Source of the DNA: Eubacteriales bacterium
Lineage (GTDB): Bacteria; Bacillota; Clostridia; Christensenellales; CAG-138
DNA length: 64,000 nt
Assembly (NCBI GenBank): GCA_021372675.1
Contig: JAJFTZ010000057.1
Coordinates: 22,633-86,632, forward strand
Direction of reading: 5' to 3'
Shown: piece after piece, positions 3,842 to 60,485 of the stretch
Position numbering within the stretch: the first letter of the stretch is position 1
Layout of the letters: each line of letters opens with the position of its first letter
The notes under the pieces: generated by a model
The model's input: the letters and a program-made list of their open reading frames with translations, nothing else
Told to the model about the DNA's origin: nothing
Database searches by the model: none
Translations under genes and position numbers: made by a program

Positions 3842-3879
3842 TTTCACGCAACCGGCCCGCGGACCGCATGCGTGAAATC

Positions 3880-3904
3880 AAAAAAGTGGCAAAGCCACTT
3901 TTTT
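3880..3904. terminator. Bidirectional intrinsic terminator
   Basis: AAAAAAGTGGC-AAA-GCCACTTTTTT. Confidence 0.75.
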
Positions 3905-3912
3905 GAGGTTTA

Positions 3913-4098
3913 CGGGAAGTACCTGCGAGATCTCGCGGCCGGTACTTCCCGCAGGGAACGAAATCCTACGGATTTCATCCGTTTCGGCACGCAAGGCCGC
4001 AGGCCTTGGCCCGAAGGGCTCCGGCCTCGCCGGACGCGTACATGCCGCCGAAGCCGGAAAAAAGCCGCCGGGGGCATCGGCCCCCGAACCCCCTTAGG
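3913..4098 (+). repeat. Rep-A copy 1: ~186-bp GC-hairpin mosaic element
   Basis: Long hairpin CGGGAAGTACC...GGTACTTCCCG, then a 140-bp core about 88% identical by eye to the reverse complement of 10201-10340. Confidence 0.8.
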
Positions 4099-4134
4099 AA
4101 ACGGTCTTGACCATTTCCAACGTTTTGATATCTC

Positions 4135-5598: not shown

Positions 5599-5607
5599 AT
5601 GCGCTTT

Positions 5608-5883
5608 AGGGTAAAGGACTTTGAACCCCTGCGCCGCAAAGCTGCGATTTTGGCGCACTGCTTCGTCATCGTCCGTCACCGTAGCCCCGCTACGGCTCCC
5701 TCCTCTTCCTTGCATTGCATCCAAACTGGCAGCTTTGCGGTCAAGGAGTTTAGAGGGTCGGAAAGTGCGGCAGTACAAGACAGAGGCATGAAGGCGTAGT
5801 GGATCTACGGCGAGTGCCGATAACACGGTAATGGCGTGCTTTCCGCCCCCCCTAAACCACAGGGGTTCGGAGCCCTTTACCCT
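5608..5883. repeat. Rep-B copy 1: inverted-repeat element with tRNA-like termini (276 bp, internal insertion)
   Basis: Termini AGGGTAAAGGACTTTGAACCCCTG / CACAGGGGTTCGGAGCCCTTTACCCT. Subterminal blocks are shared with 18198-18357. Confidence 0.8.
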
Positions 5884-5895
5884 TAGGAGATTTTT

Positions 5896-10131: not shown

Positions 10132-10200
10132 GGGGTTTTTAAAAATAATTTCACAATAGAAAAGGAACGGTAAAACCGTTCCCTATATCTGCCAAAAAGT

Positions 10201-10387
10201 CCTAGGGGGTTCGGGGGCCAAAGCCCCCGAAAGCTCAATTCCGGCTTCGGCGACATGCGCACGTCCGGCGAAGCCGGAGCCCTTCGGGCCAAGGCCTACG
10301 GCCTTGCGTGTCGAAACGGATGAAATCCGGAGGATTTCACTCCTATCACGGTTTTGTGGCCGCGTCCGCAGACGCAACAAAACCGTG
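10201..10387 (-). repeat. Rep-A copy 2 (inverted relative to copy 1)
   Basis: Same core. The long hairpin has the same architecture but different stem sequence (CACGGTTTTGT...ACAAAACCGTG). Confidence 0.8.
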
Positions 10388-10447
10388 TAAAGCCCTTTTC
10401 GCGGAAATGGCCGCAGCCCTTCCCGCGACAGCGCGAAAGCGAAGCGC

Positions 10448-13646: not shown

Positions 13647-13654
13647 TTTTCCTT

Positions 13655-13690
13655 GTACTTTTCTTGAAAGAAAAGCACCAAAAGAACTTT
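13655..13690 (+). repeat. Rep-C core copy a (palindrome + CAAAAGAAC)
   Basis: GTACTTTTCTT-GA-AAGAAAAGCAC followed by CAAAAGAACTTT. Confidence 0.7.
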
Positions 13691-13738
13691 ATGTTGGAGG
13701 GGAATATTGGGACGGGCGGCCGCAGGCCGCGCCTATGC

Positions 13739-16222
13739 CTATTCTTCTTCCGTGCCCGCCGCCTTTTCCTCGGAGATTTCTTCCTCTTCCTCCTGCGCGC
13801 TCGGTACGAGCGTTACGCCCACCACGCGGGTGCCCTCGTCCACGCGCATGAGCTTTACGCCCTGCGTATTGCGCCCGAAGGTGCTCACGTCGTTCACGTT
13901 CATGCGTATGGCCGTGCCGTCGTCGCGTATGAGCATCATGTCCTCGTCGCCGCCGGTCATCTTCAGGCATACGAGCTCGCCCGTGCGCTCCGTCACCTTT
14001 ACGGTGATCACGCCCTTGCCGTAGCGGTTTTGCAGGGGGTATTCATCCTCGCTCGTGCGCTTGCCCAAGCCGCGCTCCGTTACGCACAGCACGCTCGCGC
14101 CCTTTATGATTTTCTCCACGTCCACTACGGCGTCGCCTTCACCAAGCGCTATGCTCTTCACGCCCGCCGCCGTGCGCCCCATGGGCCGTATGTCGTTTTC
14201 GTGGAAGCGGATGCATTGGCCCTGCCGCGTGCCTACGAGTATTTCGTCGTCGCCCTCCGTGAGGAGCACGCCGATCACCTCGTCGCCCTCGTTGAGGTTC
14301 TGTGCGATCAGGCCGCCCTTGCGGATATTTTCAAACTCGCTCATGGGCGTTTTTTTGATAAGCCCCTCGCGCGTGGCGAGCACGAGGTATTCGGCCTCGA
14401 CCTCCTTGGTGACGCGAAGCACCGTCGTCACCTTTTCGCCGTCGCGAAGCTGGAGAAGGTTCACGATGGGCGTGCCCTTCGCCGTGCGGCCCGCCTCGGG
14501 TATGGTATAGCACTTCACGCGGAAGGCGCGCCCCATATTCGTGAAGAACATGATCTGGTCGTGCGTGTTCGCCACGAAGATATCGCGCACAAAATCCTCC
14601 TCGCGCGTGGTCTGCGCCATGATGCCGCGCCCGCCGCGCCGCTGCGCACGGTAAGAATCCATAGCGATGCGCTTCACGTAGCCGAACTGCGTGAGCGTAA
14701 CGACCATGTCCTCCGGCTGTATCACGTCGTCGAGGTCGATATCGTCGCTCGCGGGCTCTATGCCCGTGCGCCGCCCGTCCGCGAACTTGCGGCGTATCTC
14801 CGTAACCTCGTCGCGCAGGATGCTTAAGAGAAGCGCTTCGTCGGAAAGTATGCGCTCATAGTATGCCACGGTTTTTAAAAGCTCCGCGTATTCCTCCTCG
14901 ATCTTTTCGCGCTCAAGCCCTGTGAGGCGCTGTAAGCGCATGTCGAGGATGGCCTGCGACTGCTTGTCGCTCAGCCCGAAGCGCTCGTTGAGGCGCTCCT
15001 TGGCCACGGGGCCGTTGGGCGAGGTTTTGATAAGCTCCACGACCTCGTCGATATTATCGAGCGCGATGCGAAGCCCCTCTAAAATATGCAGCCGCTCCTT
15101 GGCGCGCTCAAGGTCGTACTGCGTGCGCCGCGTGACCACCTGCTCCTGGAACTTCATGTAGTGGTAGAGCATTTCGCGCAAGGAAAGCACCTTCGGCTCG
15201 CCGTCCACCAGCGCCAGCATGATGATGCCGAACGTATCCTGCATGGAGGTGTGCTTGTAGAGCTGGTTCAAAACGACGCCGCCGTTCACGTCTTTTTTCA
15301 GCTCGATCACGATCCGCATGCCCCTGCGGTCGGTCTCGTCGCGCAAATCGGAAATGCCCTCGATGCGCTTGTCGTGCACGAGCTCCGCGATCTTCTCGAC
15401 GAGCCGCGCCTTGTTTACCTGATAGGGTATTTCCGTTACGATGATGCGGGACTTTCCGTTCGCCATCGGCTCTATTTCCGCGCGCGCGCGCACCACAACG
15501 CGGCCGCGGCCGGTGCGGTACGCCTGACGGATGCCGGCCGTGCCCATGATGAGGCCGCCCGTGGGAAAATCCGGCCCCGGGATGTAGCCCATCAATTCCT
15601 CGATGGTGATATCGGGGTTATCGAGCATGGCAACGTAGGCATCGATCACCTCGCCCATGTTATGCGGGGGGATGTTGGTGGCCATGCCTACCGCGATGCC
15701 GCCGGAGCCGTTCACGAGGAGGTTGGGGTAGCGCGAGGGAAGCACCGTGGGCTGCATGAGCGTTTCGTCGAAATTCGGCATGAAATCGACGGTGTTTTTA
15801 TCGAGGTCGCGGAGCATTTCCGATGCGAGCTTAGAAAGCCTTGCCTCGGTATAACGCATGGCGGCGGCCGGGTCGCCGTCGATGCTGCCGTAGTTGCCCT
15901 GGCCCTCCACGAGCTGGTAGCGGATGCTGAAATCCTGCGCGAGGCGCACCATGGCGTCGTACACGGAGGAATCGCCGTGCGGGTGGTATTTGCCGAGCAC
16001 GTCGCCCACGATGCGGGCGGATTTATGGAAGGGCTTATCGGAGGTGAAGCCCTGCTCATCCATAGAATAAAGAATGCGCCTGTGCACGGGCTTCAAACCG
16101 TCGCGCACGTCGGGAAGCGCGCGGTTGATGATAACGGCCATCGCATAGGAAATGAAAGATTTCTTCATTTCCGTTTCGAGGTCGAGCGGCAGTATTTTTT
16201 CGTTCGCGGTGAATTCGCTCAT
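13739..16222 (-). CDS. gyrA: DNA gyrase subunit A
   Basis: [38 protein letters not shown] (catalytic Tyr region), C-terminal beta-pinwheel repeats and an acidic tail. Confidence 0.97.
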
Positions 16223-16234
16223 GCTATTTTACCT

Positions 16235-18354
<2,120 letters not shown>

Positions 18355-18357
<3 letters not shown>

Positions 18358-18651
18358 AGGGGTTTTATCGTTTAAAGCCGCGCGATCGGCGGAAAACGGG
18401 TCTTCCGCCGCGCGCTTTTGGAGCGTCGTCGAGGCGATGGGGGAGGAATACACGCAAAGCCTCTCGTTTTTGAGGCAGATGAGATACGATTTTTGCGGCT
18501 CGTCGGATACGCTCACCACGCGAGTGCCGCCGATGGCGTCGTCGAGCGCGCGGCGCGTATCCCGTGAGGCAAGCGCCGTTTCGCGCGGGATGACGGCGAT
18601 GATATCGTTTATGTCGAGCACGGTTTCCGCGCCCACATGTAAAGAGCTCAC
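18355..18651 (-). CDS. remB: DUF370 / RemB (YaaB)-like protein
   Basis: Occupies the recF-gyrB spacer position. The N-terminus from GTG 18651 aligns with the family. GTG overlaps the recF TGA (GTGA). Confidence 0.6.
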
Positions 18652-19748
18652 GCGCTTATAAGCCTCCCGTCCTTGCATGTAAATACTTCCATATCGAGTA
18701 TTCCCGCTTTCTCCACACCCGATAGCGAGGTGCACGTTAAAAAGCATTGGCAGCCCTTGGACGCCGTAAGAAGCATTCGCTGGCGGCGCTCGTCGAGCTC
18801 GCTTAAAACGTCGTCGAGCAAAAGGACGGGCGGCTCTCCCTTCACGTCGCGCAAAAGCGCGATCTCGGAGAGCTTCAGGGAAAGCGCGGCGGTGCGCTGC
18901 TGCCCCTGTGAGCCGAACGTGCGAAGGTCCACGTCCTCGAGCTTGATGGCGATATCGTCGCGGTGGGGGCCCACGCCGGTAAAGCCGCGCCTTAAATCCT
19001 CCTGGGCGCTTTGCGACAGGCGCTCGAGCAGCGCCTCCCGCACGCCCGTGGCGGCCTCCGTATCCACATTGGGGTCGTAGCTTACGTTGAGCCGCTCGCG
19101 CCCGCCGGAGATCTGCCGGTGGAGGTCGTAGGCGACGGTGGAGATCTCATCCAAAAAACGGCAGCGCGCCGCGATGATGCTTTCGCCTAAGGTCGCGAGC
19201 TGCTCATCCCACATGGCGAGCATGCCCGGCTTTACGGCCATGGGGCTTTCCTTTAAGAGCGCGTTTCGCTGCTTGAGCGCGACGTTGTACTGCTGGAGCC
19301 TGTAAAAGTACGTGGGGTACATTTGGCTAAGCTCCATATCCATGAAACGCCGCCTGTCGGCGGGGCCGCCCTGCACGATGCAAAGGTCGCCCGGCGAAAA
19401 AAGCACGACGTTGAGCGTGCCCATAAGCTCGCCCAAGCGCTTTACGCTCTGGCCGTTGATGAGAATCTTCTTCGGCTCGTCGGCGCGCAGCTTCACCTCC
19501 ACGGTGTGCGTGCCGAGCGCGTTTGTAAGCGTAACGCCCACATAGCCACCCGGCATGCCGCGGCGTATCAGCTCCGCGTCGCGCGAGGTACGGTGGGAGC
19601 GGCCGAACGCGCATAAAAAAACCGCCTCCAAAGCGTTGGTTTTACCCTGCGCGTTCTCGCCCGCGATCACGTTGAGGCCCGGCGAAGGGTGAAGCTCGAG
19701 CGATTCGTAATTGCGGTAATCGTTGAGTTTGAGGCGTTGTATGAGCAT
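18648..19748 (-). CDS. recF: DNA replication/repair protein RecF
   Basis: MLIQRLKLNDYRNYESL start, Walker A GENAQGKTN, LLLDDVLSELD. Confidence 0.92.
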   Translation of the reverse strand: MLIQRLKLNDYRNYESLELHPSPGLNVIAGENAQGKTNALEAVFLCAFGRSHRTSRDAELIRRGMPGGYVGVTLTNALGTHTVEVKLRADEPKKILINGQSVKRLGELMGTLNVVLFSPGDLCIVQGGPADRRRFMDMELSQMYPTYFYRLQQYNVALKQRNALLKESPMAVKPGMLAMWDEQLATLGESIIAARCRFLDEISTVAYDLHRQISGGRERLNVSYDPNVDTEAATGVREALLERLSQSAQEDLRRGFTGVGPHRDDIAIKLEDVDLRTFGSQGQQRTAALSLKLSEIALLRDVKGEPPVLLLDDVLSELDERRQRMLLTASKGCQCFLTCTSLSGVEKAGILDMEVFTCKDGRLISA

Positions 19749-19749
19749 A

Positions 19750-19800
19750 GGTCGAACCCCTGCGCCGCTATAGCGCATTGCGTCGTCGGTCGCCGTAAAG
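19750..19800. repeat. Rep-B copy 3, truncated/degenerate, abutting the recF start codon
   Basis: GTCGAACCCCTGCGCCGC...GTCGCCGTA is shared with the left arm of copies 1 and 2. The outer terminus is missing. Confidence 0.6.
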
Positions 19801-19866
19801 CCGCTTTCGCGCCTTGCCTTTCCCCGGTTAAAAGGGCGGCTTGGAAGCATCGCTCTTTATGCAAAC

Positions 19867-19895
19867 AGTATACCATTTTTATGCGTAAAATTCAA
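19867..19895 (-). promoter_or_regulatory. Sigma-A-type promoter of recF-remB-gyrB-gyrA operon
   Basis: On the minus strand: TTGAAT, a 17-nt spacer, then TATACT, preceded by TGG. Confidence 0.6.
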
Positions 19896-19990
19896 GTGTT
19901 TATTAATATAAGAAGAAAGACATGGCGGCTTTGCGCGGCGCGGGGGCTTACTCCACCGAAAACGTTCGGCAGGGGATCTCTGCTTTTCCT

Positions 19991-20611
19991 TTACCTGCTT
20001 TTTTCCAAATGCTTTTCGAGCTTATGCTTTACGCGCTGGAGCGCGTTATCCACGGTTTTGGTGTTGCGCGAGAGCGCGGCGGCGATCTCCTGATAAGAAC
20101 GGCCCTCCAAAAACAGGTCGAGTATCTGCTTTTCGAGCGCGGAAAGCGCGCTGTCGAGCGTTTGGAATATGCTCTCGAGCGATTCCTTGCCGATGAAGGT
20201 ATCCTCGGGGTTTTCGCCGCGAAGCTCCGTGAGCACGTCGATGAGCGCCCTGTCCGGCTCCTCCTCGCGGAGCGGGCGGTAGAGCGACACGTACGAGTTG
20301 AGCGGCACATGCTTTTGGCGCGTGGCCGATTTGATGGCCGTGATGATCTGGCGCAGTATGCACATTTCTGCAAACGAGCGAAACGCCGCGCCGTAGTCGG
20401 AATCGTAATCGCGGATGGCCTTGTAAAGGCCGATCATGCCCTCTTGAAGGAGGTCCTCGCGATCCGCGCCGATCAAAAAATACGGGCGCGCCTTGATGCG
20501 GACGATGTTTTTATAGCGCTCGTAGAGCACCTCGTCCGCCTCGCGGTCGCCCGTATGCGAGCGCGCCACAAGCTGCTCGTCCGTTAAATTACGATAGGCT
20601 TCGCTTTCCAT
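19991..20611 (-). CDS. sigH: Sporulation sigma factor SigH
   Basis: EDLLQEGMIGLYKAIRDYD region 2 and a C-terminal region-4 HTH. Conserved mrnC-rlmB-sigH neighbourhood. Confidence 0.75.
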   Translation of the reverse strand: MESEAYRNLTDEQLVARSHTGDREADEVLYERYKNIVRIKARPYFLIGADREDLLQEGMIGLYKAIRDYDSDYGAAFRSFAEMCILRQIITAIKSATRQKHVPLNSYVSLYRPLREEEPDRALIDVLTELRGENPEDTFIGKESLESIFQTLDSALSALEKQILDLFLEGRSYQEIAAALSRNTKTVDNALQRVKHKLEKHLEKSR

Positions 20612-20686: not shown

Positions 20687-22099
20687 TTAGTTTTTGCTGT
20701 CCTGCCGCTTTTTTTCAAACAGGAGGATCGCCGCCGCGACCGACGCGTTGAGCGATTCGATGCTGCCGTAAAGCGGTATTTTCACCGTAAAGTCGCACAT
20801 CTCGCGCACAAGCCTCGAAAGGCCCTCGCCCTCGGAGCCGATCACGAGCGCAAGCGCGCCCTCGAGCTTGGCCTCCGTCATGGGCGTGCCCTCCATATCG
20901 GCGCCGGCGATCCATACGCCCTCTTTTTTAAGCGTTTCGATGGCGTTACCGATATTTGCCACGCGCGCCACCTTGATGTATTCCACCGCGCCCGCGCTCG
21001 CCTTGCAGGCGGCTGCGGTGACGCTCGCGGAGCGCCTTTTGGGGATGACCACGCCGTGCGCGCCCGCGCATTCCGCGCTCCTTAGGATGGAGCCGAGGTT
21101 ATGCGGGTCCTCGATGCCGTCGAGCAGAACGAGGAAGGGCTTTTCATTTTTCGCCTTGGCCGCGTCGAGGATGTCGCTGAGCTCGCAGTACTGCACGCCC
21201 GGCACCATGGCCACGATGCCCTGATGGTTGCCCGTTTTGCTGCCGTGGCCGAAGGGCATGCAAAGCTCGTCGAGCTTGCTCCTATCCACCTCGCGAAGCT
21301 GCACGTTGTTATCGCGCGCGAGGTTCACAAGCTCGCGCAGGGAACCGTCGAGCTCCTTCACGACGAGGATACGGTCGATGCTCCTGCCGCTTTTGAGCGC
21401 CTCGCGGACGGCGTTGCGGCCCATCACGAGGTAGGGAAGCTCGTCCTCCGGCACGTTTTTGGCCTGCTCCGCGGCTGTGGCGCTCGCGGGGGCCATGGCG
21501 TCGTACTTCAGCTCGTAACGCTGCTTTTTCATGTCGGGCGCGGTGTGCGCTTCGGCCTCGTGAAGCTCCGCCTCGTCCACGGAGGGCGCGCTCGGCTTCT
21601 TGCTCTCGTAGGGCTTGCTGCCGCCGTAAGGCTTGCTGCCGTAAGGTTTTTTGTACGAACGGTCGCCGTAGGGTTTGTCGCCGTAGGGCTTCTTTTCGCC
21701 ATAGGGTTTATCGCCGTAAGGCTTATCGCCATACGGTTTTCTTTCGCCATAGGGCTTATCGCCATAGGGCTTTCTCTCGCCGTAAGGCTTGTCGCCGTAG
21801 GGTTTCTTCTCGCCATAGGGCTTATCGCCGTACGGCTTTCTCTCGCCGTAGGGTTTGTCACCGTAGGGCTTTCTCTCGCCATAGGGCTTGTCGCCGTAGG
21901 GTTTCTTCTCGCCATAGGGCTTATCGCCGTACGGTTTTTTGTCACCGTAGGGCTTTTTGTCACCGTAGGGTTTTTTATCGCCGTATGGCTTCCTATCCCC
22001 CTGCGGCTTGCCGCCGTAGGGCTTGCCCCCGCGCGCGTCGTTTCCGCCCTGCGGGCGGTAAGGGGGCTTTCCGCCGCCCCTGTTGTTATTTTCCGGCAT
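20687..22099 (-). CDS. rlmB: 23S rRNA 2'-O-methyltransferase RlmB (SpoU/TrmH) with long N-terminal KPYG repeat domain
   Basis: C-terminal LDGIEDPHNLGSILRSAE, LVIGSEGEGLS and IPLYGSIESLNASVAAAILL motifs. Start ATG 22099 lies just downstream of the mrnC stop. Confidence 0.85.
   Translation of the reverse strand: MPENNNRGGGKPPYRPQGGNDARGGKPYGGKPQGDRKPYGDKKPYGDKKPYGDKKPYGDKPYGEKKPYGDKPYGERKPYGDKPYGERKPYGDKPYGEKKPYGDKPYGERKPYGDKPYGERKPYGDKPYGDKPYGEKKPYGDKPYGDRSYKKPYGSKPYGGSKPYESKKPSAPSVDEAELHEAEAHTAPDMKKQRYELKYDAMAPASATAAEQAKNVPEDELPYLVMGRNAVREALKSGRSIDRILVVKELDGSLRELVNLARDNNVQLREVDRSKLDELCMPFGHGSKTGNHQGIVAMVPGVQYCELSDILDAAKAKNEKPFLVLLDGIEDPHNLGSILRSAECAGAHGVVIPKRRSASVTAAACKASAGAVEYIKVARVANIGNAIETLKKEGVWIAGADMEGTPMTEAKLEGALALVIGSEGEGLSRLVREMCDFTVKIPLYGSIESLNASVAAAILLFEKKRQDSKN
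21596..22024 (-). repeat. In-frame tandem repeat encoding about two dozen KPYG(D/E)(K/R) units in rlmB
   Basis: 15/18-nt periodic DNA with a higher-order 33-nt unit (KPYGDKPYGE[KR]). Translation of the rlmB frame. Confidence 0.9.
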
Positions 22100-22130
22100 A
22101 GTTGACCTCTTTCTTTCGTGTCGGCGGGGG

Positions 22131-22598
22131 TTATGTGCGCTCGCTTGCGCCGCCTGTGATGAGGGCCGCGCGAACAAGCTCGGACAGCCGCGCCTCCCGG
22201 TTGGACAGATACAGATAGCCCAGCAGCGCCTCGAAGCCCGTAGCCGTGCGGTAATCGGCTATTTTGGCGTTTTTGGGGACGCTGCCAAGGTGCGTGTTGC
22301 GGCCGCGCTTGTAAATCCCCAGTTCCTCGTCGCTTAGCATTTGCTCCACGCGGAAAAAGCTTTCGGCCTGCGCCTTGGCACACACCCTCGCCGCACATCG
22401 CACGTGCAGCCCGTGCGCCGTTTGATCGGTGGTTTCCAAATAATAGGTGCGTACGAAAAGATCGTACACGGTATCGCCGACGTAGGCGAGCACGGAGGGG
22501 CTCAAAAGCGCGGGGTCGCGCGGGGACACCCCGTGAAACGCCGCGTTGACCGCCCCGAGCATACCGCCCGCATCGCCCTTTTCGCCTATCCTCTCCAT
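22131..22598 (-). CDS. mrnC: Mini-ribonuclease III
   Basis: LAYVGDTVYDLFVRTYY RNase III-like signature, ~150 aa, located upstream of rlmB. Confidence 0.8.
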   Translation of the reverse strand: MERIGEKGDAGGMLGAVNAAFHGVSPRDPALLSPSVLAYVGDTVYDLFVRTYYLETTDQTAHGLHVRCAARVCAKAQAESFFRVEQMLSDEELGIYKRGRNTHLGSVPKNAKIADYRTATGFEALLGYLYLSNREARLSELVRAALITGGASERT

Positions 22599-24784: not shown

Positions 24785-25624
24785 TTACGGCTTTCTCGTG
24801 ACCTTGATGGCGATATCCACGCCGTCCGGGCGGTCTGACTGCTCCACCTCCACCGACATGCCCGCCTCGCGCAGTTGGTTGACGGCGGTGTTTACGGTGT
24901 TCATAAAAAGCCTGTAATCCTTCACGAGCCGTATCATGATGGGGCGGGGCTTCGCGCCGTCCCGCTTTTCGTCGTAAAGGCGGTTGAGCGTTTTTTCCAC
25001 ATACGCTTCGGTCTCCTTCACGGAAAGCCCCTTCTCGGCGATCTTTTTCACGGCGTCGAGCTGGTGCTTTTCCTCGCGCAGGCTTAAAAGCGCGCGCGCG
25101 TGGCGCTCGCTCAGGCCCGCTTCGACCATGGCGTCCTTCACGGCGGGGGGAAGCTTCAAAATGCGCAGCTTGTTGGCGATGGACGACTGGCTCTTGCCGA
25201 GTTTTTTGGCAAGCTCCTCCTGCGTGAGGTGGAAGGAGCTGAGAAGCTGGCTGTAGCACCCGGCCTCCTCGAGGTAGCTGAGCTCCTCGCGCTGGAGGTT
25301 TTCGATGAGCGCCATCATGGCGGAGGCCTCGTCCACCACGTCGTTTTGCACGATGCAGATCACCGTTTTCATGCCGAGGGTTTTCACCGCGCGAAGGCGG
25401 CGTTCGCCCGCCACGAGTTCGTACCCGCTTGGGACGGGGCGCACCACGAGCGGCTGAATAAGCCCCACCTGCGCGATGGAGTCCGCAAGCTCCTGAATAC
25501 CTTCCTCCACAAACGTGGCGCGCGGCTGGTTGGGGTTCGGCAGTATTTTTAAAACGTCGATCTCCTCCAGCCTCTTTTCCGGCTCGGGCTTTTTCGTATC
25601 CCTCAAAAAATCAAATACCGGCAT
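24785..25624 (-). CDS. noc: ParB-family nucleoid-occlusion-like protein (Noc-type paralogue)
   Basis: GERRLRAV CTP/ParB box, HTH TQEELAKKLGKSQSSIANKLRILKL, Noc-like C-terminus (FMNTVNTAVNQLREAGMSVEVE...IAIKVTRKP). Adjacent to rsmG. Confidence 0.65.
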   Translation of the reverse strand: MPVFDFLRDTKKPEPEKRLEEIDVLKILPNPNQPRATFVEEGIQELADSIAQVGLIQPLVVRPVPSGYELVAGERRLRAVKTLGMKTVICIVQNDVVDEASAMMALIENLQREELSYLEEAGCYSQLLSSFHLTQEELAKKLGKSQSSIANKLRILKLPPAVKDAMVEAGLSERHARALLSLREEKHQLDAVKKIAEKGLSVKETEAYVEKTLNRLYDEKRDGAKPRPIMIRLVKDYRLFMNTVNTAVNQLREAGMSVEVEQSDRPDGVDIAIKVTRKP

Positions 25625-25729
25625 GAACCTGGCCTCCTTACGATGAGTGTTTCGCTGTGAAACCGTATATTTCCTGCAACCGCCGCAAAAGCGGCGCGGA
25701 TTCGGCAAAAAAGGATTTTCTTCGCATCG

Positions 25730-28338: not shown

Positions 28339-28373
28339 AGCTCTTTTCTTGGAGGCTCCGCCTCCAAACCTCC

Positions 28374-28415
28374 GGTTACTTTTCTTTTAAGAAAAGTAAC
28401 CAAAAGAATTTATAG
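28374..28415 (+). repeat. Rep-C core copy b
   Basis: GGTTACTTTTCTTTTAAGAAAAGTAACC followed by AAAAGAATTTATAG. Confidence 0.75.
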
Positions 28416-28490
28416 TTTAAAGTATAAGGAGCCGCTCCCATAAAGCCCGAGCTATATTATAGCAAAACTTTCCTAAACAGGAAAAGGCTT

Positions 28491-29804: not shown

Positions 29805-29934
29805 GGCTGTTTCCTCCTCGGCGGGAAATGGGGGATATTGTGGGGATACTGCTATTGTATCCCAAAGATGGGAGGGATGTAAACGGCGGCGCGTTTTTAC
29901 GCAGTTCGTTCTCCGTTTGCCTCCCCAAAACCAC

Positions 29935-30034
29935 AAAAGGCGCCCGTTGTTTGGGCGCCTTTTCGCGAAAAGTAAGCTTTTATTATTTTACCCTAAAGTT
30001 TCTTTTGCTTCTTTTCTTTTCAAAGAAAAGAAGC
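29935..30034 (-). repeat. Rep-C full module copy c (terminator hairpin + spacer + palindrome) after jag
   Basis: AAAAGGCGCCCGTTGTTTGGGCGCCTTTT ... GCTTCTTTTCTTTTCAAAGAAAAGAAGC. Confidence 0.8.
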
Positions 30035-32081: not shown

Positions 32082-32303
32082 TCAGGGGACGGGGTCGTAG
32101 CCGCCCCTGGAAAAAGGGTTGCACCGCAGCACGCGCTTCACGGCAAGCCATAGGCCCTTTTTCGGGCCGTACTTTTCGATGGCCTCGAGCGCGTAGGCGG
32201 AGCAGGTGGGGATGTAGCGGCAGGATGCGGGCAGAAACGGGGATACAAACGCCTGATAGCCCCGAATCATCGATAATAAGGATCGCTTTAAAAAAGCCCT
32301 CAT
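32082..32303 (-). CDS. yidD: Membrane protein insertion efficiency factor YidD
   Basis: [15 protein letters not shown] motif. ATG 32303 overlaps the rnpA stop (ATGA). Confidence 0.85.
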
Positions 32304-32647
32304 CGCTCCAGTTCCTTGAGAAGGTTCGCCTTCTGCAGCAGGTACCGCATGGAGGCGCACAGGGCGGAAAACCTTTCCTCTACCGCCGCGTCGCGGGCGA
32401 TGAAGATGAGGTCGTGCCCTTCCTTCACCCCCGGTATCATAGGGGTGAACGCCTCGCGAAGGCGGCGCTTGACGCGGTTTCTGACGACGCTGTTACCTAT
32501 TTTTTTGCTGACGGAAAAGCCCACGCGAACGCGCGGCTCCTTCGAGCGGGCGCTCAAAAGCACGAGCTGCCTCGAGGCGTTGGATTTCCCCACGCGGTAT
32601 ACATGGCGGAAGTTTTTGTTCCGCTTGAGCGAATAACAGCGTTTCAT
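32300..32647 (-). CDS. rnpA: Ribonuclease P protein component
   Basis: [21 protein letters not shown] motif. Immediately downstream of rpmH. Confidence 0.9.
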
Positions 32648-32723
32648 TCCATGGTTCCCGGCGCGGCCGGGCGGGCTTTGCCATAAAAGCACACGGCAAG
32701 CGAAGCCTGCCGTGCGGCGCGTT

Positions 32724-32858
32724 TTACGCGGAAAGGACTTTGCGGCCTTTTAACCGCCTGCGGGCGAGCACTTTCCTCCCGTTCGCGGTCTTCATGCGCT
32801 GGCGGAAGCCATGCACCTTTTTCCGCTGTCTCTTCTTGGGCTGGTAGGTCTGAAGCAT
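32724..32858 (-). CDS. rpmH: 50S ribosomal protein L34
   Basis: Absent from the ORF track because it is under 60 aa. Hand translation: [44 protein letters not shown]. Confidence 0.93.
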
Positions 32859-32998
32859 TCTCTACACCTCTCTTCCGTTTTCTTCTTCAGGGCGTTTGGC
32901 GCAAAACGCGGCGCACGGCGAAGCATGGCGCGCGCCATGCTCCAAAAGCCCTGCGAATGTACAAGCCGATAACTTGCCGCCGTGGCTGTCAGAAGTAG

Positions 32999-33028
32999 AT
33001 TATATAAGAAAGACGGTGGAACTGTCAA
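32999..33028 (-). promoter_or_regulatory. Sigma-A-type promoter of rpmH-rnpA operon
   Basis: On the minus strand: TTGACA, an 18-nt spacer, then TATAAT. Confidence 0.65.
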
Positions 33029-33171
33029 GGAATCCGGCGCGCAAACCGCTTTTTTTCCGATAAATTTCATCCCGCGCCCGAACCGCCCCGCGCCATCACT
33101 AGATATGGTATTTTTCCTTGGCAGCGGTCACTAATCAGGAAAATTCGCCAGCCCGCATACCAAAAGTACCC

Positions 33172-33200
33172 TTGTCATGCCGCCACGGTTTTGCTATCAT
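33172..33200 (+). promoter_or_regulatory. Candidate promoter of dnaA leader / small RNA
   Basis: TTGTCA, a 17-nt spacer, then TATCAT. Confidence 0.45.
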
Positions 33201-33259
33201 AAGCATAACCGGGGGAAAGGTAAGGAACGCCGCGTCCCTCGGCGCAATAGTTTTTTGCC

Positions 33260-33284
33260 AAGCCGCCCGTTGGCCGGCTTTTTT
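33260..33284 (+). terminator. Intrinsic-terminator-like hairpin between the candidate promoter and the dnaA boxes
   Basis: AAGCCGCCC-GTT-GGCCGGCTT (8 of 9 bp paired) followed by TTTTTT. Confidence 0.5.
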
Positions 33285-33296
33285 CATCGGGCAGAG

Positions 33297-33317
33297 TTAT
33301 CCACAAAGTTATTCACA
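33297..33317 (+). promoter_or_regulatory. Two DnaA boxes upstream of dnaA (TTATCCACA, TTATTCACA)
   Basis: Exact consensus 9-mer at 33297-33305 and an 8/9 match at 33309-33317, about 40 nt before the dnaA ATG. Confidence 0.8.
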
Positions 33318-33355
33318 AAATGGGTGGTTTATCAACACTTGGGGGTTTTTGGGGC

Positions 33356-34687
33356 ATGCAGTCGGCGCAGTACGTTTGGGAAAAATCGATCGTTGAGTTA
33401 AAAAAACTGATGACAACGCCGAGCTTCGACGCTTGGATATCGCCCATCGAGCCGCTTTGCATCCGCGACAATGCCCTCGTATTGCTGGCGCAAAACGGCA
33501 TTTCCAAAAATACGCTCATCAACCTTTACACGGCTACCGTCACCAACGCCGTCAACAAGGCAAACGATACGGGCCTTACCATCTCCTTCGTGGACCCCTC
33601 CGAGGCGGGCGAATACCGCGCGGAGCAGGCGCCTAATTCCGCATTTTCCCCCTCCGCTTCGCGTGAAACGCAGCTTAACCCCAAATATACCTTCGACTCA
33701 TTCGTCATCGGCAATTCCAACAGCTTTGCGCACGCGGCCGCAAAAGCCGTGGCCGATAACCCTTCCTCGGCCTACAACCCGCTTTTCATCTACGGCGGCG
33801 TGGGCCTTGGTAAAACGCACCTCATGCACGCCATCGGCAACCATATCCGCGAAATAAAACCGAAATCCAAGATCATCTACGTGACGAGCGAATCGTTTAT
33901 GAACGAGATGATCCTTGCCATACAGGAAAATAAAAACGCGCAGTTCCGCAACAAATACAGGAGCGTGGACGTGCTTATGGTGGACGATATCCAATTCATC
34001 TCCACCCGCGTCGGTTTGCAGGAGGAGTTTTTCAACACCTTCAACGCGCTCCATACCAACGGCAAGCAGATTATTTTAAGCTCCGATAAGCCCCCCATGG
34101 AGATGCAAACGCTCGAGGTGCGCCTTAGGTCGCGCTTCGAGGGCGGTCTCATCGCCGATATACAGCCGCCCGATATCGAGACCCGCGCGGCCATTTTACG
34201 TAAAAAGGTGGCGCTTGAAGATATCTGCATCGACGAACGCGTTATCACCTTCATCGCGGAAAAGGTAAATTCCAATATCCGTCAGCTCGAGGGCTCGCTC
34301 AACCGCGTGATCGCCTATTCCAACCTCACCAAGCGTCCCATCGACGCCGCCCTCGCGGACACCGCCCTGCGCGATATTTTGCCGGGCTTTGAAAACAGGA
34401 AGATCACCATTGACCTCATCCAGCAGGTGGTGGCGGATTATTATTCCATCAGCCTTGACAGCCTCCTTTCGCAGCGCCGCACCATGGAGATCACCTACCC
34501 GCGCCAGATCGCCATGTACCTCTGCAAGGAAATGACGGAATCCTCCTTAAAAAGCATTGGCCGCAGCTTCGGCGGGCGCGACCATACCACCGTGATAAGC
34601 GCCTGCAAAAAGATCGCTTCCGATATAGAAAAGGACGCAAAGCTGCCCCTTATTATGGAGGACTTGGAAAAGCGTATCAAAAAGTGA
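33356..34687 (+). CDS. dnaA: Chromosomal replication initiator DnaA
   Basis: Walker A GGVGLGKTHL, VDDIQF, C-terminal ITYPRQIAMYL DNA-binding signature. DnaA boxes flank the gene. Confidence 0.97.
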   Translation: MQSAQYVWEKSIVELKKLMTTPSFDAWISPIEPLCIRDNALVLLAQNGISKNTLINLYTATVTNAVNKANDTGLTISFVDPSEAGEYRAEQAPNSAFSPSASRETQLNPKYTFDSFVIGNSNSFAHAAAKAVADNPSSAYNPLFIYGGVGLGKTHLMHAIGNHIREIKPKSKIIYVTSESFMNEMILAIQENKNAQFRNKYRSVDVLMVDDIQFISTRVGLQEEFFNTFNALHTNGKQIILSSDKPPMEMQTLEVRLRSRFEGGLIADIQPPDIETRAAILRKKVALEDICIDERVITFIAEKVNSNIRQLEGSLNRVIAYSNLTKRPIDAALADTALRDILPGFENRKITIDLIQQVVADYYSISLDSLLSQRRTMEITYPRQIAMYLCKEMTESSLKSIGRSFGGRDHTTVISACKKIASDIEKDAKLPLIMEDLEKRIKK

Positions 34688-34691
34688 TGCA

Positions 34692-34925
34692 TTTTCCACA
34701 GGGCATTCACATTTTGTGGAAAAGGCCCGTGGAAATGTGTAGTATAATTTGTGGAAAATGTGTGCTTCGTTGCCACTGTTGAAAAGCCCTTTTTTAGACC
34801 TTGTTTTTCCACAGGCTTATCCACGGCAAAAAGCCTTTTAAAATTTGAAGTTTCGGGGCTTATCCACAGTATCCAGCCCCCTACTATAACTACTACGATT
34901 TATACTATATAACAAATACCAAAAA
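34692..34925 (+). other. oriC core in the dnaA-dnaN spacer: DnaA-box cluster, GC cluster, DnaA-trio-like repeats, AT-rich DUE
   Basis: Boxes: TTTTCCACA 34692, TGTGGAAAA 34715, CGTGGAAAT 34728, TGTGGAAAA 34750, TTTTCCACA 34805, TTATCCACG 34817, TTATCCACA 34860. Then AGCCCC, then CTACTATAACTACTACGA (34881-34898), then an AT-rich run to ~34925. Confidence 0.85.
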
Positions 34926-34943
34926 GCGAATCGGAGGGATCGT

Positions 34944-36050
34944 ATGAAATTTTATATTTCCACCGAAGACTTGAACGCGGGTATCTCCATAATATCCAAG
35001 GCGTTGCCGTCCCGCACCGCCATGCCCATACTCGAGGGCATCTACGCGCAGGCGCAGGGAAATAACCTTCTTTTAAGATGTAACGACCTTTCCCTGCAAA
35101 TAGAAACGCTTCTTCCCGCCGCCGTGGAAACAGAGGGCTCCCTCGTTTTTCCCGGCAGGCTTTTCTCCGACCTCGCGCGCCGTCAACCCGATGAGCAGAC
35201 CTTGATCGAAACCGATAAAACCACCGTTACCATGCAAAGCGGGCGCGCCCGCGCCACCATGCAGGCGTTCGACGCCGCCGAATACCATTCCATGCCCTTC
35301 TCACGGCAGGAATTTTTTGTGAACATCAAAAAAAGCACGCTCAAGAGCATGATCAAGCAGACGATCTTCGCCACCGCGCAGGATGAAACAAAGCCCATCC
35401 TCACGGGCGTCCTCCTCGAGATCACCGAGGGGCTTCTTTCCATGGTGGCGCTCGACGGCTACCGCCTCGCACTTCGCCGCGAAGCGGCCGACGGCGTGAT
35501 CGGCGAGCAAAAGGTGGTCGTCCCCGCCAAATCCCTGCTCGAAATAAGCCGCATCCTCGATGATTCGGACGATATTATCAAGGTCGTATTCTCGAGGACC
35601 CACCTTCTTATAGACCTCGATCATACTAAAATTACCACGCGCCTCCTCGAGGGCGAATTCATCAAGTATAAGCAAATCCTCCCGGAAAATCATACCACTT
35701 GCGTGCGCGTGAACCGCCAGGAGCTTTTCGACAGCATCGAGCGCGTTTCCCTCATTGCCCGCGAAGGAAAATCAAACCTCGTAAAATTCTCCTTCTCCGG
35801 CGATAATTTGGCCATTTCCGCCAACTCCGAAGCCGGTAAAAGCAATGAGGAGCTTACAGTTTCCGTGATGGGAAGCGAGCTGGAGATCGCCTTTAACGCA
35901 AAGTACGTGAGCGACGTTTTAAAATCGCTCGACGACGACGAGGTGTTTCTTGAAATGAACAGCAGCATCAGCCCCTGCGTCGTAAAACCCGTGCAGGGCG
36001 ACCGTTTTTATTTTCTCATCCTTCCCGTAAGGCTGTTTTCGGGGCTATAA
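34944..36050 (+). CDS. dnaN: DNA polymerase III beta sliding clamp
   Basis: 368 aa, follows dnaA, clamp-like three-domain length and an MPILEGI... N-terminus. Confidence 0.93.
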   Translation: MKFYISTEDLNAGISIISKALPSRTAMPILEGIYAQAQGNNLLLRCNDLSLQIETLLPAAVETEGSLVFPGRLFSDLARRQPDEQTLIETDKTTVTMQSGRARATMQAFDAAEYHSMPFSRQEFFVNIKKSTLKSMIKQTIFATAQDETKPILTGVLLEITEGLLSMVALDGYRLALRREAADGVIGEQKVVVPAKSLLEISRILDDSDDIIKVVFSRTHLLIDLDHTKITTRLLEGEFIKYKQILPENHTTCVRVNRQELFDSIERVSLIAREGKSNLVKFSFSGDNLAISANSEAGKSNEELTVSVMGSELEIAFNAKYVSDVLKSLDDDEVFLEMNSSISPCVVKPVQGDRFYFLILPVRLFSGL

Positions 36051-36059
36051 GGAACGGAT

Positions 36060-36155
36060 GTTACTTTTTTTGAAAGAAAAGTAACCAAAAGAACTTATAG
36101 TTTAAATAGAAATATGCTTTTCACGAAAAGGCGCCCAAAACTACGGGCGCCTTTT
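36060..36155 (+). repeat. Rep-C full module copy d after dnaN
   Basis: GTTACTTTTTTTGAAAGAAAAGTAACCAAAAGAAC ... AAAAGGCGCCCAAAACTACGGGCGCCTTTT. Confidence 0.85.
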
Positions 36156-36183
36156 ATGAAGGAAAAAAGAGAACGAAAAAAGG

Positions 36184-37184: not shown

Positions 37185-37367
37185 ATTTGTATAAAACCGA
37201 TTTGCCCCAAAACAGCGTATATACAGCCGTCTGTTTATGCATTTTTTCTTTTTTAAAAGACCGCAGAAAGCATGGAAACAGCTCGCTTTTTAGGCAGCCC
37301 GCGCACGCCCGTATGCGCTTTATACAGCCCCTAAAAAGCGCTTGTTCAAGCAAAAGCGGCCCATCAT

Positions 37368-37464
37368 AAAAGGCGCCCGTCGGTTGGGCGCCTTTTCGCG
37401 GAAAGCAAGGCTATTATATTTTGACCAAAAGTTCTTTTGGCTACTTTTCTTCCAAGAAAAGTAG
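37368..37464 (-). repeat. Rep-C full module copy e after the M32 carboxypeptidase gene
   Basis: AAAAGGCGCCCGTCGGTTGGGCGCCTTTT ... CCAAAAGTTCTTTTGGCTACTTTTCTTCCAAGAAAAGTAG. Confidence 0.85.
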
Positions 37465-50943: not shown

Positions 50944-51019
50944 TGTTTCACATGAAACAATGTATAGACGAAATGTTTCATGTGAAACAATATGTGGATA
51001 GAATGTTTCATGTGAAACA
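50944..51019. other. Array of three parS-like sites at 30-bp spacing
   Basis: TGTTTCACATGAAACA (50944), TGTTTCATGTGAAACA (50974), TGTTTCATGTGAAACA (51004). Each matches TGTTNCACGTGAAACA at 15/16. Confidence 0.8.
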
Positions 51020-52612
51020 ATGTATAGCGGAAACAAACGGGAGGATACGCGCATCAAACAGGAGCAGGCCCTTTCGAGGGAGATCGTAAAACGGCTTCTC
51101 GAGCAGCCCAACGGCCCCGAAAAGCTCATGGACGACGCCGACACGGCGTTCGACGCTGCGTGGGCCCTTTATCTGGAGGGCTTCGCGCCTGCGGGCGCCT
51201 TTTTGGCGCGCTGCGCGAAAAAGGCCGCGTTCCGCGCGCGCATGGAGGACAGGCTCCTCTTTGAGCGTGAGGACTTCTTAAAAACGCTTTCCTCCGAAAA
51301 CCCCAAGATGCGCAAAAACGCCGCGCGGCTCATGGGGGAATTGCGGATAAGCGGAGCCGCGGAGCTGATCGTTGCGGCGCTCGAAAAGGAACCCCAGCGC
51401 TTCGTGCGGCCGTCGCTGATCCTCGCGCTCGGGAAAACGGGCGGCGCTGCGGCGGAAACGGCGCTTAAAGCCTATGAAGTGCCCGGGGCGAAGGACGAAA
51501 CCGAAAAAAAACATTTCGAGGAGGAGCTTACGGCGCTTTTCACCGCGCGCGCGGCGCTCACGGCACCCAAACGCCACGCGTTCACGGGCTTAAAAAAACC
51601 GTATCTCATTGAGCTTCGCGCGCCGGACAGGCTATCCGAGGCGCTGGTGGCCGAGCTAAATGCCCTTGGCTTTTCGGAGGCCCGCGCGGTAAGCCCATCG
51701 GGCGTGCGGCTCACGACGGACGACATTTCAGGCTTGATGCAGGCGCGCTGCTTCCACGAGCTTTTGTTTGTGGTATCCGACGACGCGGCGCTTGCGCCAA
51801 AGAGCGTCGCGTTCAAGGCGAAGCCCTTCCTCGAGGAGCTTATGATCAACGCGCATGAGGGGGAACGGCCCTTCGGCTTCCGCGTGGAGGTGCGAGCGCA
51901 ATCGGAGGAGCGCGCGGCGCTCGTAAAGGAAATTGCGCTTCTACTGAACGGCGAGACCCTCGCAAACGCGCCGGGCAGCTACGAGGCGGAGCTTCGCGCG
52001 GAGCAAAAGCCAAACGGCGGCGCGCGGCTAACCGTAAAGCTTTCGTCCATACCCGACGAGCGCTTTTCCTACCGCTTGGGGGCCATCCCCGCGTCGATGC
52101 ACCCGGCCACGGCGGCGGCCGTGCTCCGCTACGCCGCCGCTTACTTAAAGGAAGGCTCTCGCGTGTTGGACCCGTTCTGCGGCAGCGGCACGCTTTTGAT
52201 CGAGCGCGAAAAGCTCACAGCATGCGAAGCGCTCACGGGCGTGGATATCGCGCACGCGGCCATCGATGTGGCGCGCCAAAACGCGGCGGCGGCGGGGAGC
52301 AGCGCCAGGTTTATCGTTAACGATTGCCTGCGCTTTGAGGCAAACCGCAAATACGACGAGGTGATCTCGAACCTCCCCTTCGGCAACCGCGTGGGGACGC
52401 ACGCGCACAACGAGCGGCTGTACGCGGAATTTATCGCGCGGCTTCCGCTGTGGCTCAAGCCAAACGGCGTGGCGCTTTTGTACACCATGGAGTTCACGCT
52501 TTTAAAAAAGCTTCTTCGCGAAACGCCCGCTTTAAGGCTCGTGGCGCAGGAGCGCACCGAGGCAGGCGGGCTCATGCCCGGTATTTTCCTATTGCAAAAC
52601 CGCCCGGTGTGA
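51020..52612 (+). CDS. HEAT-repeat / THUMP-like / UPF0020 class-I SAM-dependent (RNA) methyltransferase fusion
   Basis: HEAT-like PKMRKNAARLMGEL..LIVAALEKEP..RPSLILALGKTG. SAM motif VLDPFCGSGTLLIE and catalytic NLPFGNR. Start codon uncertain because ATG 51020 lies inside the parS repeat unit and has no RBS. Confidence 0.6.
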   Translation: MYSGNKREDTRIKQEQALSREIVKRLLEQPNGPEKLMDDADTAFDAAWALYLEGFAPAGAFLARCAKKAAFRARMEDRLLFEREDFLKTLSSENPKMRKNAARLMGELRISGAAELIVAALEKEPQRFVRPSLILALGKTGGAAAETALKAYEVPGAKDETEKKHFEEELTALFTARAALTAPKRHAFTGLKKPYLIELRAPDRLSEALVAELNALGFSEARAVSPSGVRLTTDDISGLMQARCFHELLFVVSDDAALAPKSVAFKAKPFLEELMINAHEGERPFGFRVEVRAQSEERAALVKEIALLLNGETLANAPGSYEAELRAEQKPNGGARLTVKLSSIPDERFSYRLGAIPASMHPATAAAVLRYAAAYLKEGSRVLDPFCGSGTLLIEREKLTACEALTGVDIAHAAIDVARQNAAAAGSSARFIVNDCLRFEANRKYDEVISNLPFGNRVGTHAHNERLYAEFIARLPLWLKPNGVALLYTMEFTLLKKLLRETPALRLVAQERTEAGGLMPGIFLLQNRPV

Positions 52613-53879: not shown

Positions 53880-53913
53880 CGCGGCCATGCCGCAAGCATA
53901 GTAGGAGAGGTAT

Positions 53914-60320: not shown

Positions 60321-60380
60321 GGTTGCGCGGCGGGCACGCCGCGCATAGGGTATCCAAAGCCTTTATTCCCTAAGCAGCAT

Positions 60381-60479
60381 AAAAGGCGCTCGTTTTTGAG
60401 CGCCTTTTCGTATAAAGCAAATCTATTGTAATCTAAGCCAAAAGTTCTTTTGGTTACTTTTCTTACAAGAAAAGTAACC
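60381..60479 (-). repeat. Rep-C full module copy f after typA
   Basis: AAAAGGCGCTCGTTTTTGAGCGCCTTTT ... CCAAAAGTTCTTTTGGTTACTTTTCTTACAAGAAAAGTAACC. Confidence 0.85.
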
Positions 60480-60485
60480 GTTTCC

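Follow-up and report, generated by a model that had tools for sequence, protein, structure and literature searches.

Mosaic hairpin repeats at gene 3' ends in uncultured Clostridia: a probable family of DNA-level interspersed elements

Two runs of GC-rich hairpins lie in opposite orientation, 6.1 kb apart, in a 64,000-nucleotide (nt) stretch of the genome of an Eubacteriales bacterium (assembly GCA_021372675.1, contig JAJFTZ010000057.1, positions 22,633 to 86,632; the whole stretch is called the window). The locus raises the question of what these two copies, designated A and B, are: a dispersed DNA repeat, a structured RNA, an array of protein-binding sites or a local duplication. They probably belong to a lineage-restricted, non-coding family of interspersed mosaic palindromic repeats that are DNA-level elements located at gene 3' ends. 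Modules of the element, above all a cassette of three small hairpins, are gained, lost, duplicated and exchanged between copies, so that orthologous sites are full, truncated, coreless or empty.

Two copies in the window and a family beyond it

Positions 3955-4094 (+) and 10204-10343 (-) formed an inverted pair of 140 nt with 87% complementarity (repeat search, with agreement of a MAFFT alignment), close to what an earlier note on this DNA had read by eye (a core of 140 base pairs (bp), about 88% alike). The short hairpins listed in that note were all found in both copies: GAAATCC-NNN-GGATTTC, AAGGCC-GYA-GGCCTT, GCCC-GAA-GGGC, TCCGGC-YTC-GCCGGA and GGGGGC-NNNN-GCCCCC. Folded on either strand and compared with dinucleotide shuffles, each copy was strongly structured (z between -4.1 and -5.9; none of 200 shuffles folded equally well). 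The long hairpin M1 had a perfect 11-bp outer stem of unrelated sequence in the two copies (CGGGAAGTACC/GGTACTTCCCG in copy A, 3913-3951; CACGGTTTTGT/ACAAAACCGTG in copy B, 10347-10387), and the stem enclosed TGCG..CGCGGCC in both.

Copy A lies between two convergent genes, Sod_Cu (stop 3841) and a metallophosphoesterase gene (stop 4135), and occupies essentially the entire 293-nt spacer. Copy B is in sense orientation: upstream of it is an alpha/beta-hydrolase gene (stop 10448), downstream a terminator hairpin (10184-10162), and it extends from the hydrolase stop codon (10447) to that terminator (10162). Full copies in relatives were 330-380 nt long. The limits of about 186 nt proposed earlier were too narrow, because the chain of modules extends beyond them in the window copies and in relatives. 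The motif CCCCC(T)TAGG, which had been taken for the end of the element, was indeed present in copy A (4090-4098) and copy B (10201-10209), and also in the related locus L003. In most relatives more modules follow at this point and the motif is missing, and therefore CCCCCTTAGG is not an end motif of the family; the resemblance seen between the motif and the ends of another repeat, Rep-B, amounted to a few common bases at most.

With two copies only, 6.1 kb apart, and neither additional copies nor solo modules found elsewhere in the 64 kb, the pair could have arisen by a simple local inverted duplication without any family. This explanation, which the earlier note had named among the outcomes that would refute its reading, can practically be dismissed. 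A 21-mer from the conserved centre of the cassette had 14 genuine matches in a one-genome-per-species collection, in three other metagenome-assembled genomes (MAGs): 11 in Bacillota bacterium OH_HBB_203, 1 in OH_SFB_220 and 2 in Clostridia bacterium SMAG_U13140. At least 14 further window-type or cassette copies with unrelated flanks are thus at hand: by BLAST of the MAG loci against the window, the element alone could be aligned (81-98% identity), the flanking DNA being otherwise unalignable, and three extra copies without the exact 21-mer were recovered. These copy numbers are lower bounds because the MAGs are fragmented (at least 11 exact-core matches in OH_HBB_203). Orthologous copies were present in relatives, and a Logan contig of the same species (L028, 1-53; SRR15035646) begins inside the copy B cassette, an assembly break typical at dispersed repeats. 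L028 differed from the window at a few bases (CATGTTGTCGAAG vs CATGTCGCCGAAG), which is strain variation.

One further 21-mer match (L017, Dehalococcoidia) was rejected as a chance match in coding sequence. At the sensitivity used, the family was missing from the viral, phage, plasmid and metagenome collections. A cassette 18-mer had two matches only in viral contigs, both inside genes and judged to be chance; the phage collection held no match; the plasmid collection gave a single match of 51 nt (84%) inside a Ketogulonicigenium gene, also judged chance; and the sole match to a 20-mer in the Joint Genome Institute (JGI) metagenomes was the 3' end of an unrelated gene of a soil organism. The variable M1 arms, considered as guides, had no other occurrence beyond chance 10-mers in 230 kb of window and related sequence. 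L014 was rejected as the syntenic counterpart of copy A, since only a terminator-like module is common to both and the neighbouring genes differ. No orthologues common to the window and the MAG loci, sought to estimate genome distance, were found. The family is multi-copy, restricted to a small group of uncultured Clostridia and previously undescribed.

Alignment of the copies resolved them into a chain of different hairpins in one orientation and fixed order: M0 (or a terminator-like hairpin), M1, M2, a closing helix with the cassette, M3, M4, M5 and a tail. M0 consists of GCGCTTCGCTTTCGCG, a variable hairpin and CGCGAGGG..TTTT, in that order; some copies have the bidirectional terminator-like hairpin TCAAAAAAGTGGC..GCCACTTTTTTGAGGTT in its place. 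M1 is a long hairpin, M2 a GGAACGAAAnCC hairpin, M3 a TTAAGGGGC hairpin, M4 a GGGGGC hairpin and M5 a GGAACGG hairpin, and the apical loop of the closing helix holds the 49-nt cassette of three triloop hairpins. M3 was present in some copies and absent in others, both window copies among the latter, and the tail of MAG copies comprised further modules, including GTAG-headed hairpins. In L003 and L004 an extra module of about 85 nt stood between M2 and the closing helix, and in L004 the first cassette hairpin was partly triplicated.

In copy A (+), a variable hairpin TTTCACGCA..TGCGTGAAA directly follows the Sod_Cu stop (3842-3877); as read from the sequence, it is placed and shaped like the M0 hairpins of relatives and is tentatively the counterpart of that module. 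A bidirectional terminator-like hairpin AAAAAAGTGGC-AAA-GCCACTTTTTT plus GAGGTTTA comes next (3880-3912, by terminator-type matches); this module also precedes M1 in L014 (203-231, 93% identical), L006 and L004. M1 (3913-3951) has a perfect 11-bp outer stem, a conserved internal loop (5' TG / 3' CGGCC) and a 6-bp inner stem, and M2 (3952-3976) is made of the linker CAGGGAAC and the hairpin GAAATCC-TAC-GGATTTC, with two covarying pairs. According to the fold and the covariation model, the arms of the closing helix (TCCGTTTCGGC, 3978-3988, and GTACATGCCGCCGAAGCCGGA, 4038-4058) enclose the 49-nt cassette (3989-4037), which reads ACGC-AAGGCC-GCA-GGCCTT-GGCCC-GAA-GGGC-TCCGGC-CTC-GCCGGA-CGC. M4 (4058-4098) is an A-run, the hairpin GGGGGC-ATCG-GCCCCC and GAACCCCCTTAGG; on the minus strand its hairpin (4087-4068) and the T-run CGGCTTTTTT scored as an intrinsic terminator for the metallophosphoesterase gene. 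A degenerate M5 hairpin GGAAACGG-TCTTGA-CCATTTCC (4097-4118, +) aligned with GGGAACGGTCTTGACCGTTTC of L003.

Copy B (-) begins at the hydrolase stop codon with M0 (GCGCTTCGCTTTCGCG, a variable hairpin and CGCGAAAAGGGCTTTA; 10388-10447), pieces of which are common to L003, L004 and L005. It continues with the M1 hairpin (10347-10387, by fold and covariation), M2 with its linker and the hairpin GAAATCC-TCC-GGATTTC (10322-10346), and the closing helix (5' arm 10310-10320, 3' arm 10239-10260) around the three-hairpin cassette (10261-10309). M4 (TCGGGGGC-TTTG-GCCCCCGA plus ACCCCCTAGG; 10201-10230) is followed by M5, a terminator hairpin AGGGAACGG-TTTT-ACCGTTCCTT with a T tail (10160-10184), which probably terminates the hydrolase transcript and was kept in a close relative (L029, hydrolase 93% identical).

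Turnover of sites, modules and cassette

The site of copy B (site B), between the hydrolase and MerR genes, lies in the conserved synteny gyrA-cca-peptidase C26-hydrolase-MerR-VanZ and was found in six states. The window holds the full element. L029 (hydrolase 93% identical in amino acids) has an internal deletion of about 150 nt which removed half of M0, M1, M2 and the cassette. L031 (78%) is expanded, with extra hairpins inside an M1 of another subtype, and L032 (77%) lacks exactly the cassette (GGCGCGCATGTCG vs GGCGCGC[49 nt]ATGTCG). L038 (76%) has M0 only, and L036 and L037 (80%) have a plain terminator without the element. Site B was empty in GCA_023411995.1. The site of copy A (site A), between Sod_Cu and the metallophosphoesterase gene, was empty in GCA_023435855.1 (a 79-nt spacer with a single terminator), where site B on the same contig was occupied. 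The variant states at both sites rest on MAG or Logan assemblies. One orthologous intergenic site in six states is a clean example of module-by-module turnover.

Between the window and L031 or L032, the M1 stems at site B were unrelated and the neighbouring MerR promoter region was well conserved; it follows that copies have exchanged M1 variants and that these have not drifted in place. The differing stems are better accounted for by replacement of one hairpin subtype by another, out of a small set, than by gradual compensatory change at a single site.

The cassette acts as a unit of its own. It stood at the apex of another, companion element of 325-400 nt with terminal inverted repeats of about 27-30 nt (L006, L008, L012), and it occurred alone in L007 and L008 (622-688). 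The companion element, non-coding and from OH_HBB_203 (L006 5710-6033, L008 2228-2628, L012 7524-7857; terminal inverted repeats TAAGCACACCAAGCCTATTCGGAC..), folds as a single long hairpin with the cassette at its tip, and its L008 copy had an extra insert of 66 nt. A variant of the cassette was reversed inside a loop of L008 (CGTAGCG|GGCCTACG), a loop that was empty in L012 and L006. The 49-nt insertion-deletion was flanked by GCGCGC or CGC, with ACGC at both cassette ends in nearly all contexts; these flanking repeats are partly palindromic, and deletion by microhomology would fit them equally well as target-site duplication.

It is rather doubtful that the cassette, perhaps with other small hairpins, is itself a micro-mobile element that inserts either way into unpaired loops and junctions of hairpins in single-stranded DNA. 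The constant stems of the cassette would then be read by an enzyme, nested insertions would have built up the larger element, and M1 would be recognised by its shape, its arm complementarity arising from intrastrand template switching and not from selection on RNA. Bearing on this are four independent cases of units in loops or junctions, the comparisons of filled with empty loops (one forward, one reverse) and stems 17-fold more conserved than loops.

Pairing, transcription and competing explanations

A covariance model was aligned to 12 full copies. Across them 96.9% of cells were paired and 14 pairs had changed on both sides, with 0 of 500 shuffles as good and slid controls likewise far off; folding and covariation, which the earlier note had put forward as a check, thus bore out structural conservation once more copies were aligned. 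Its description of a 5' hairpin alike in structure and not in sequence held as well: in the M1 outer stem 10 of 11 pairs covaried and 99.2% were paired. The M2 helix covaried at two pairs and the cassette helices at none. In 19 cassette copies from 5 genomes, differences per site were 0.8% in stems and 14% in loops (about 17-fold). From this difference and the M1 covariation, pairing is presumably what M1 needs, any sequence being allowed, and the cassette stems presumably must not change in sequence. A few subtypes of M1 exist, with arms exactly compensated between them, and its internal loop is conserved. In the closing helix, copies A and B differed by a compensatory change from G-C to A-T (GGCA/TGCC vs GACA/TGTC); a T.G pair was kept in 11 of 12 copies, and L010 had another G.U-compatible change in the same helix.

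These patterns would also be expected if the element were a structured RNA module on the same transcript as the upstream gene, acting as a 3'-untranslated-region (3'-UTR) element or a 3'-derived small RNA. The hairpins, above all M1, M2 and the cassette, would then serve to bind a protein or to protect the mRNA, and the copies would be paralogous functional sites under selection at the RNA level. An RNA role is kept alive by the perfect M1 covariation, the T.G pair in 11 of 12 copies and the finding that insertions are confined to loops and junctions, a pattern also shown by the expansion segments of structured RNAs. It is also in line with the number of pairs changed on both sides, the conserved M1 internal loop, the variable loops and constant stems of the cassette, the identical orientation of site B in four genomes, and the majority of copies being sense and directly 3' of a stop codon.

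All 13 scorable window-type copies adjoined at least one gene 3' end, with none in a divergent promoter spacer, and the neighbouring genes were housekeeping genes. Between co-directional genes, 5 copies were sense and 2 antisense, one of the latter in the spacer between relA/spoT and a phosphoribosyltransferase (Pribosyltran) gene, probably apt, for a putative adenine phosphoribosyltransferase. The antisense copies speak against a transcribed module, as do the terminator-like hairpin and T-run upstream of M1 in at least 6 copies, window copy A included. M1, M2 and the cassette of copy A (3913-4057) stand between the Sod_Cu terminator (3880-3904) and the minus-strand terminator formed by M4 and its T-run (4087-4058); this stretch is probably hardly transcribed, since it lies between two convergent terminators. 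One orthologous copy (L029) persists despite the loss of M1, M2 and the cassette, and another (L032) has no cassette, and therefore no single fold is required; the cassette also occurs reversed within an unrelated element. Sporadic stem mismatches on the element strand numbered 9 G.T and 12 A.C, which implies neither a wobble bias nor a strand asymmetry, and the G.U excess over A.C that would favour RNA was lacking. Rfam 15 gave nothing at the gathering threshold for either window copy or for 14 related loci, and permissive Rfam searches gave chance-level matches only. The best sub-threshold match, RsmW, scored 36.6 against a threshold of 52 bits with the GGA loops unaligned; an RsmW identity was rejected and the Rsm/Csr likeness is superficial.

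Orientation, upstream terminators and the lack of wobble bias, together with the turnover of cassette and sites, favour a DNA-level element, and a structured RNA is an unlikely explanation. The earlier preference for a DNA-level element over a sense-specific 3'-UTR RNA was thereby upheld, with many copies in several genomes and in both orientations to transcription, orthologous sites polymorphic in presence and in modules, and copy A mostly between convergent terminators.

A DNA-level role need not be that of a mobile repeat. The three adjacent 13-15-bp palindromes of the cassette could serve as operators to which a protein of the nucleoid, topoisomerase or partition type binds, the element being a host-domesticated binding array kept for chromosome organisation and not selfish, comparable to bacterial interspersed mosaic elements (BIMEs) that bind gyrase or integration host factor (IHF). 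Invariant cassette stems without covariation point to sequence-specific recognition, the element was conserved far better than its flanks between genomes, and both orientations are tolerated. Such a function is nonetheless improbable: close relatives have readily lost sites or have them empty, some otherwise intact copies have no cassette, no candidate binding protein was identified, and there are two copies only in a 64-kb window that spans the replication origin and parAB.

As DNA-level repeats, the copies may spread and be reshuffled through hairpins of single-stranded or cruciform DNA, with new hairpin units entering unpaired loops and junctions and copies recombining with one another. A HUH/RAYT-like enzyme (RAYT, transposase associated with repetitive extragenic palindromic (REP) sequences) or another structure-specific nuclease is the obvious candidate for mobilisation. 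The cassette stems may be invariant since some factor recognises their sequence, and the M1 outer stem would need pairing only; its arms could stay complementary through selection for pairing or through intrastrand template switching at quasi-palindromes, an established mutational mechanism. Two hairpins with T-runs stood at positions that call for a terminator: M5 behind the hydrolase gene and, on the minus strand, M4 behind the metallophosphoesterase gene. Both have probably been recruited by the neighbouring genes for termination or for protection of 3' ends, like REP sequences and BIMEs.

Several results weigh against a DNA-level repeat. Window-type elements showed no clear target-site duplication, and empty and filled sites do not align, which leaves the outer insertion boundaries undefined. 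Their full-length copies (e.g., L016, 2044-2423) had ends that were not complementary, that is, no terminal inverted repeats. No transposase or RAYT gene was found in a scan that took in 30 flanking genes in the MAG loci, 20 of the window's 52 predicted genes and the genes called in orthologous loci (64 kb of the source genome and about 150 kb from related loci). The deletion variants were read from MAG or Logan assemblies, in which misassembly can occur at repeats, and the 5:2 orientation counts are too small to set against a sense preference. The strong covariation of M1 and M2, the retained T.G pair and the conservation of cassette stems over loops would likewise be expected of a selected RNA.

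If the family is a DNA-level one, interspersed mosaic hairpin repeats, known from Proteobacteria and streptococci, would extend to an uncultured high-GC clade of Clostridia. In practical terms, such repeats break metagenomic assemblies and create or replace the terminators of housekeeping genes, and their strong covariation could pass for a novel structured RNA in comparative screens. A sequence-invariant cassette, found nested either way round in hairpin loops, could be a route to a structure-specific activity recognising DNA (or RNA).

Other repeats of the window and comparison with known systems

The window spans the chromosomal origin region (rnpA, dnaA, dnaN, recF, gyrBA, parAB), in an unusual gene order (13739-20000 vs 32300-36050): rnpA, dnaA and dnaN lie at 32-36 kb, and recF, gyrB and gyrA about 13-20 kb away on the opposite strand. 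The GC skew changes sign at about 30-38 kb, where GC content falls to 0.53. A second intergenic repeat (5600-5893 and 18191-18366), probably the Rep-B of the earlier note, had copies 73-82% alike with a differing internal block of 116 nt and with inverted repeats at the ends (..TTAGGGTAAAGGACTTTGAACCCCTG / CAGGGGTTCGGAGCCCTTTACCCTTAGG). In appearance it resembles a miniature inverted-repeat transposable element (MITE) or a long hairpin, and it was not found in the MAG loci. A third repeat family occurred in both orientations (13654-13700, 28373-28427, 29932-30033, 36060-36162, 37361-37464 and 60375-60480). In it the perfect palindrome GTTACTTTTCTT-nnnn-AAGAAAAGTAAC precedes CAAAAGAAC, and the terminator CGAAAAGGCGCCC..GGGCGCCTTTT follows at a distance of about 35 nt; an operator combined with a terminator is one possible interpretation.

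Three tandem 30-nt units (50944-51033), each with the palindrome TGTTTCACATGAAACA / TGTTTCATGTGAAACA, lie about 2 kb upstream of parA and parB (53097-54780); their palindromes are presumably parS-like. The genes of two ParB-family paralogues (24785-25708, -; 53914-54780, +) contain stretches 76-78% identical as inverted pairs, and one of the two may be a Noc-like protein. A thiamine pyrophosphate (TPP) riboswitch (62431-62532, +; 62.2 bits, above threshold) lies upstream of a YuaJ-type thiamine transporter gene (62613-63299). Tandem repeats of 33 nt (21607-22031) in the N-terminal part of a SpoU-type rRNA methyltransferase gene (20687-22177, -) are a repetitive coding region.

In its workings the family resembles REP/BIME, BOX and enterobacterial repetitive intergenic consensus (ERIC) sequences, and partly MITEs, and it is a member of none. 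REP sequences are defined in PMC3733652 and PMC2817692, and PMC3116915 also deals with REP/BIME and RAYT; REP sequences have been described mostly in Proteobacteria, and the text of the Di Nocera survey makes no mention of Firmicutes or Clostridia. Like REP sequences and BIMEs, the copies are extragenic GC-rich hairpins at gene 3' ends, in both orientations and many copies, as mosaics of variable composition; they are present or absent between relatives and can double as terminators or as 3' protectors of mRNA. The 3'-end placement (13/13) matches that of REP sequences and REPINs, with a copy number of at least 11 in one MAG and 2 in the window. Related copies have tails with GTAG-headed hairpins (GTAGGGGCGGAT, GTAGGGCGGGATGA), and the opposite strand of the third cassette hairpin gives CGTC-CGGCGAAGCCGG, perhaps by coincidence. 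GTAG-headed hairpins (GTAGGGGCGGATA.., GTAGGGCGGGATGATTTCATCCCGCC), some of them as inverted pairs, were seen at L031 5050-5200, L032 5290-5400, L038 3700-4100 and L013 3160-3235. They look like genuine REP/REPIN-type units, of which the window has none: GTAGGGSSGR occurred there once (0.88 expected by chance), away from the copies, and hairpins of the GTAG type were absent.

The unit of the family differs from a REP sequence in that it is an ordered chain of distinct hairpins of 190-380 nt and not one GTAG/CGTC palindrome of 20-40 nt. Unlike in BIMEs, the modules are not the same palindrome in alternating orientation, and variable module content is common to both. Of the REP/MITE-like nature proposed earlier, the dispersed repeat has stood; the 20-40-nt GTAG-tagged palindrome of the one and the terminal inverted repeats of the other are lacking in the window type.

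MITEs such as Correia elements are likewise small, non-coding, dispersed, hairpin-forming and polymorphic between relatives, and presence/absence polymorphism was found at sites A (empty in GCA_023435855.1) and B (empty in GCA_023411995.1). The companion element, with its terminal inverted repeats and apical cassette (L006, L008, L012), comes closer to them. The window-type element is not a classical MITE because it lacks such repeats, and no parent insertion sequence was seen for it. The M1 hairpin is analogous to integron attC sites, where structure and not sequence is kept in a hairpin acting as folded single-stranded DNA, but it has no R''/R' core sites (RYYYAAC..GTTRRRY), its arms start with C(A/G) and end with (C/T)G, and there are neither cassette genes nor an integrase nearby. 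Elhai et al. in 2008 reportedly described cyanobacterial repeats of tens of nt inserted inside other hairpin repeats with the host hairpin intact; this is a lead only, and those nested repeats differ from the Clostridia family in phylum, sequence and size.

BOX elements (boxA-boxB-boxC) of Streptococcus pneumoniae and ERIC sequences, or intergenic repeat units (IRU), of enterobacteria are modular non-coding intergenic stem-loop repeats with a variable number of modules; ERIC has internal insertions at fixed points, and neither has a transposase of its own. The present family is likewise one of modular intergenic hairpins, compared here by general description; it is not known to be related to either in sequence. 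It differs from both in its nested cassette, which is also found in another element and reversed, and in a hairpin with freely covarying arms. The nested invariant cassette and the freely covarying M1 are its unusual details, and the phenomenon overall is a familiar one.

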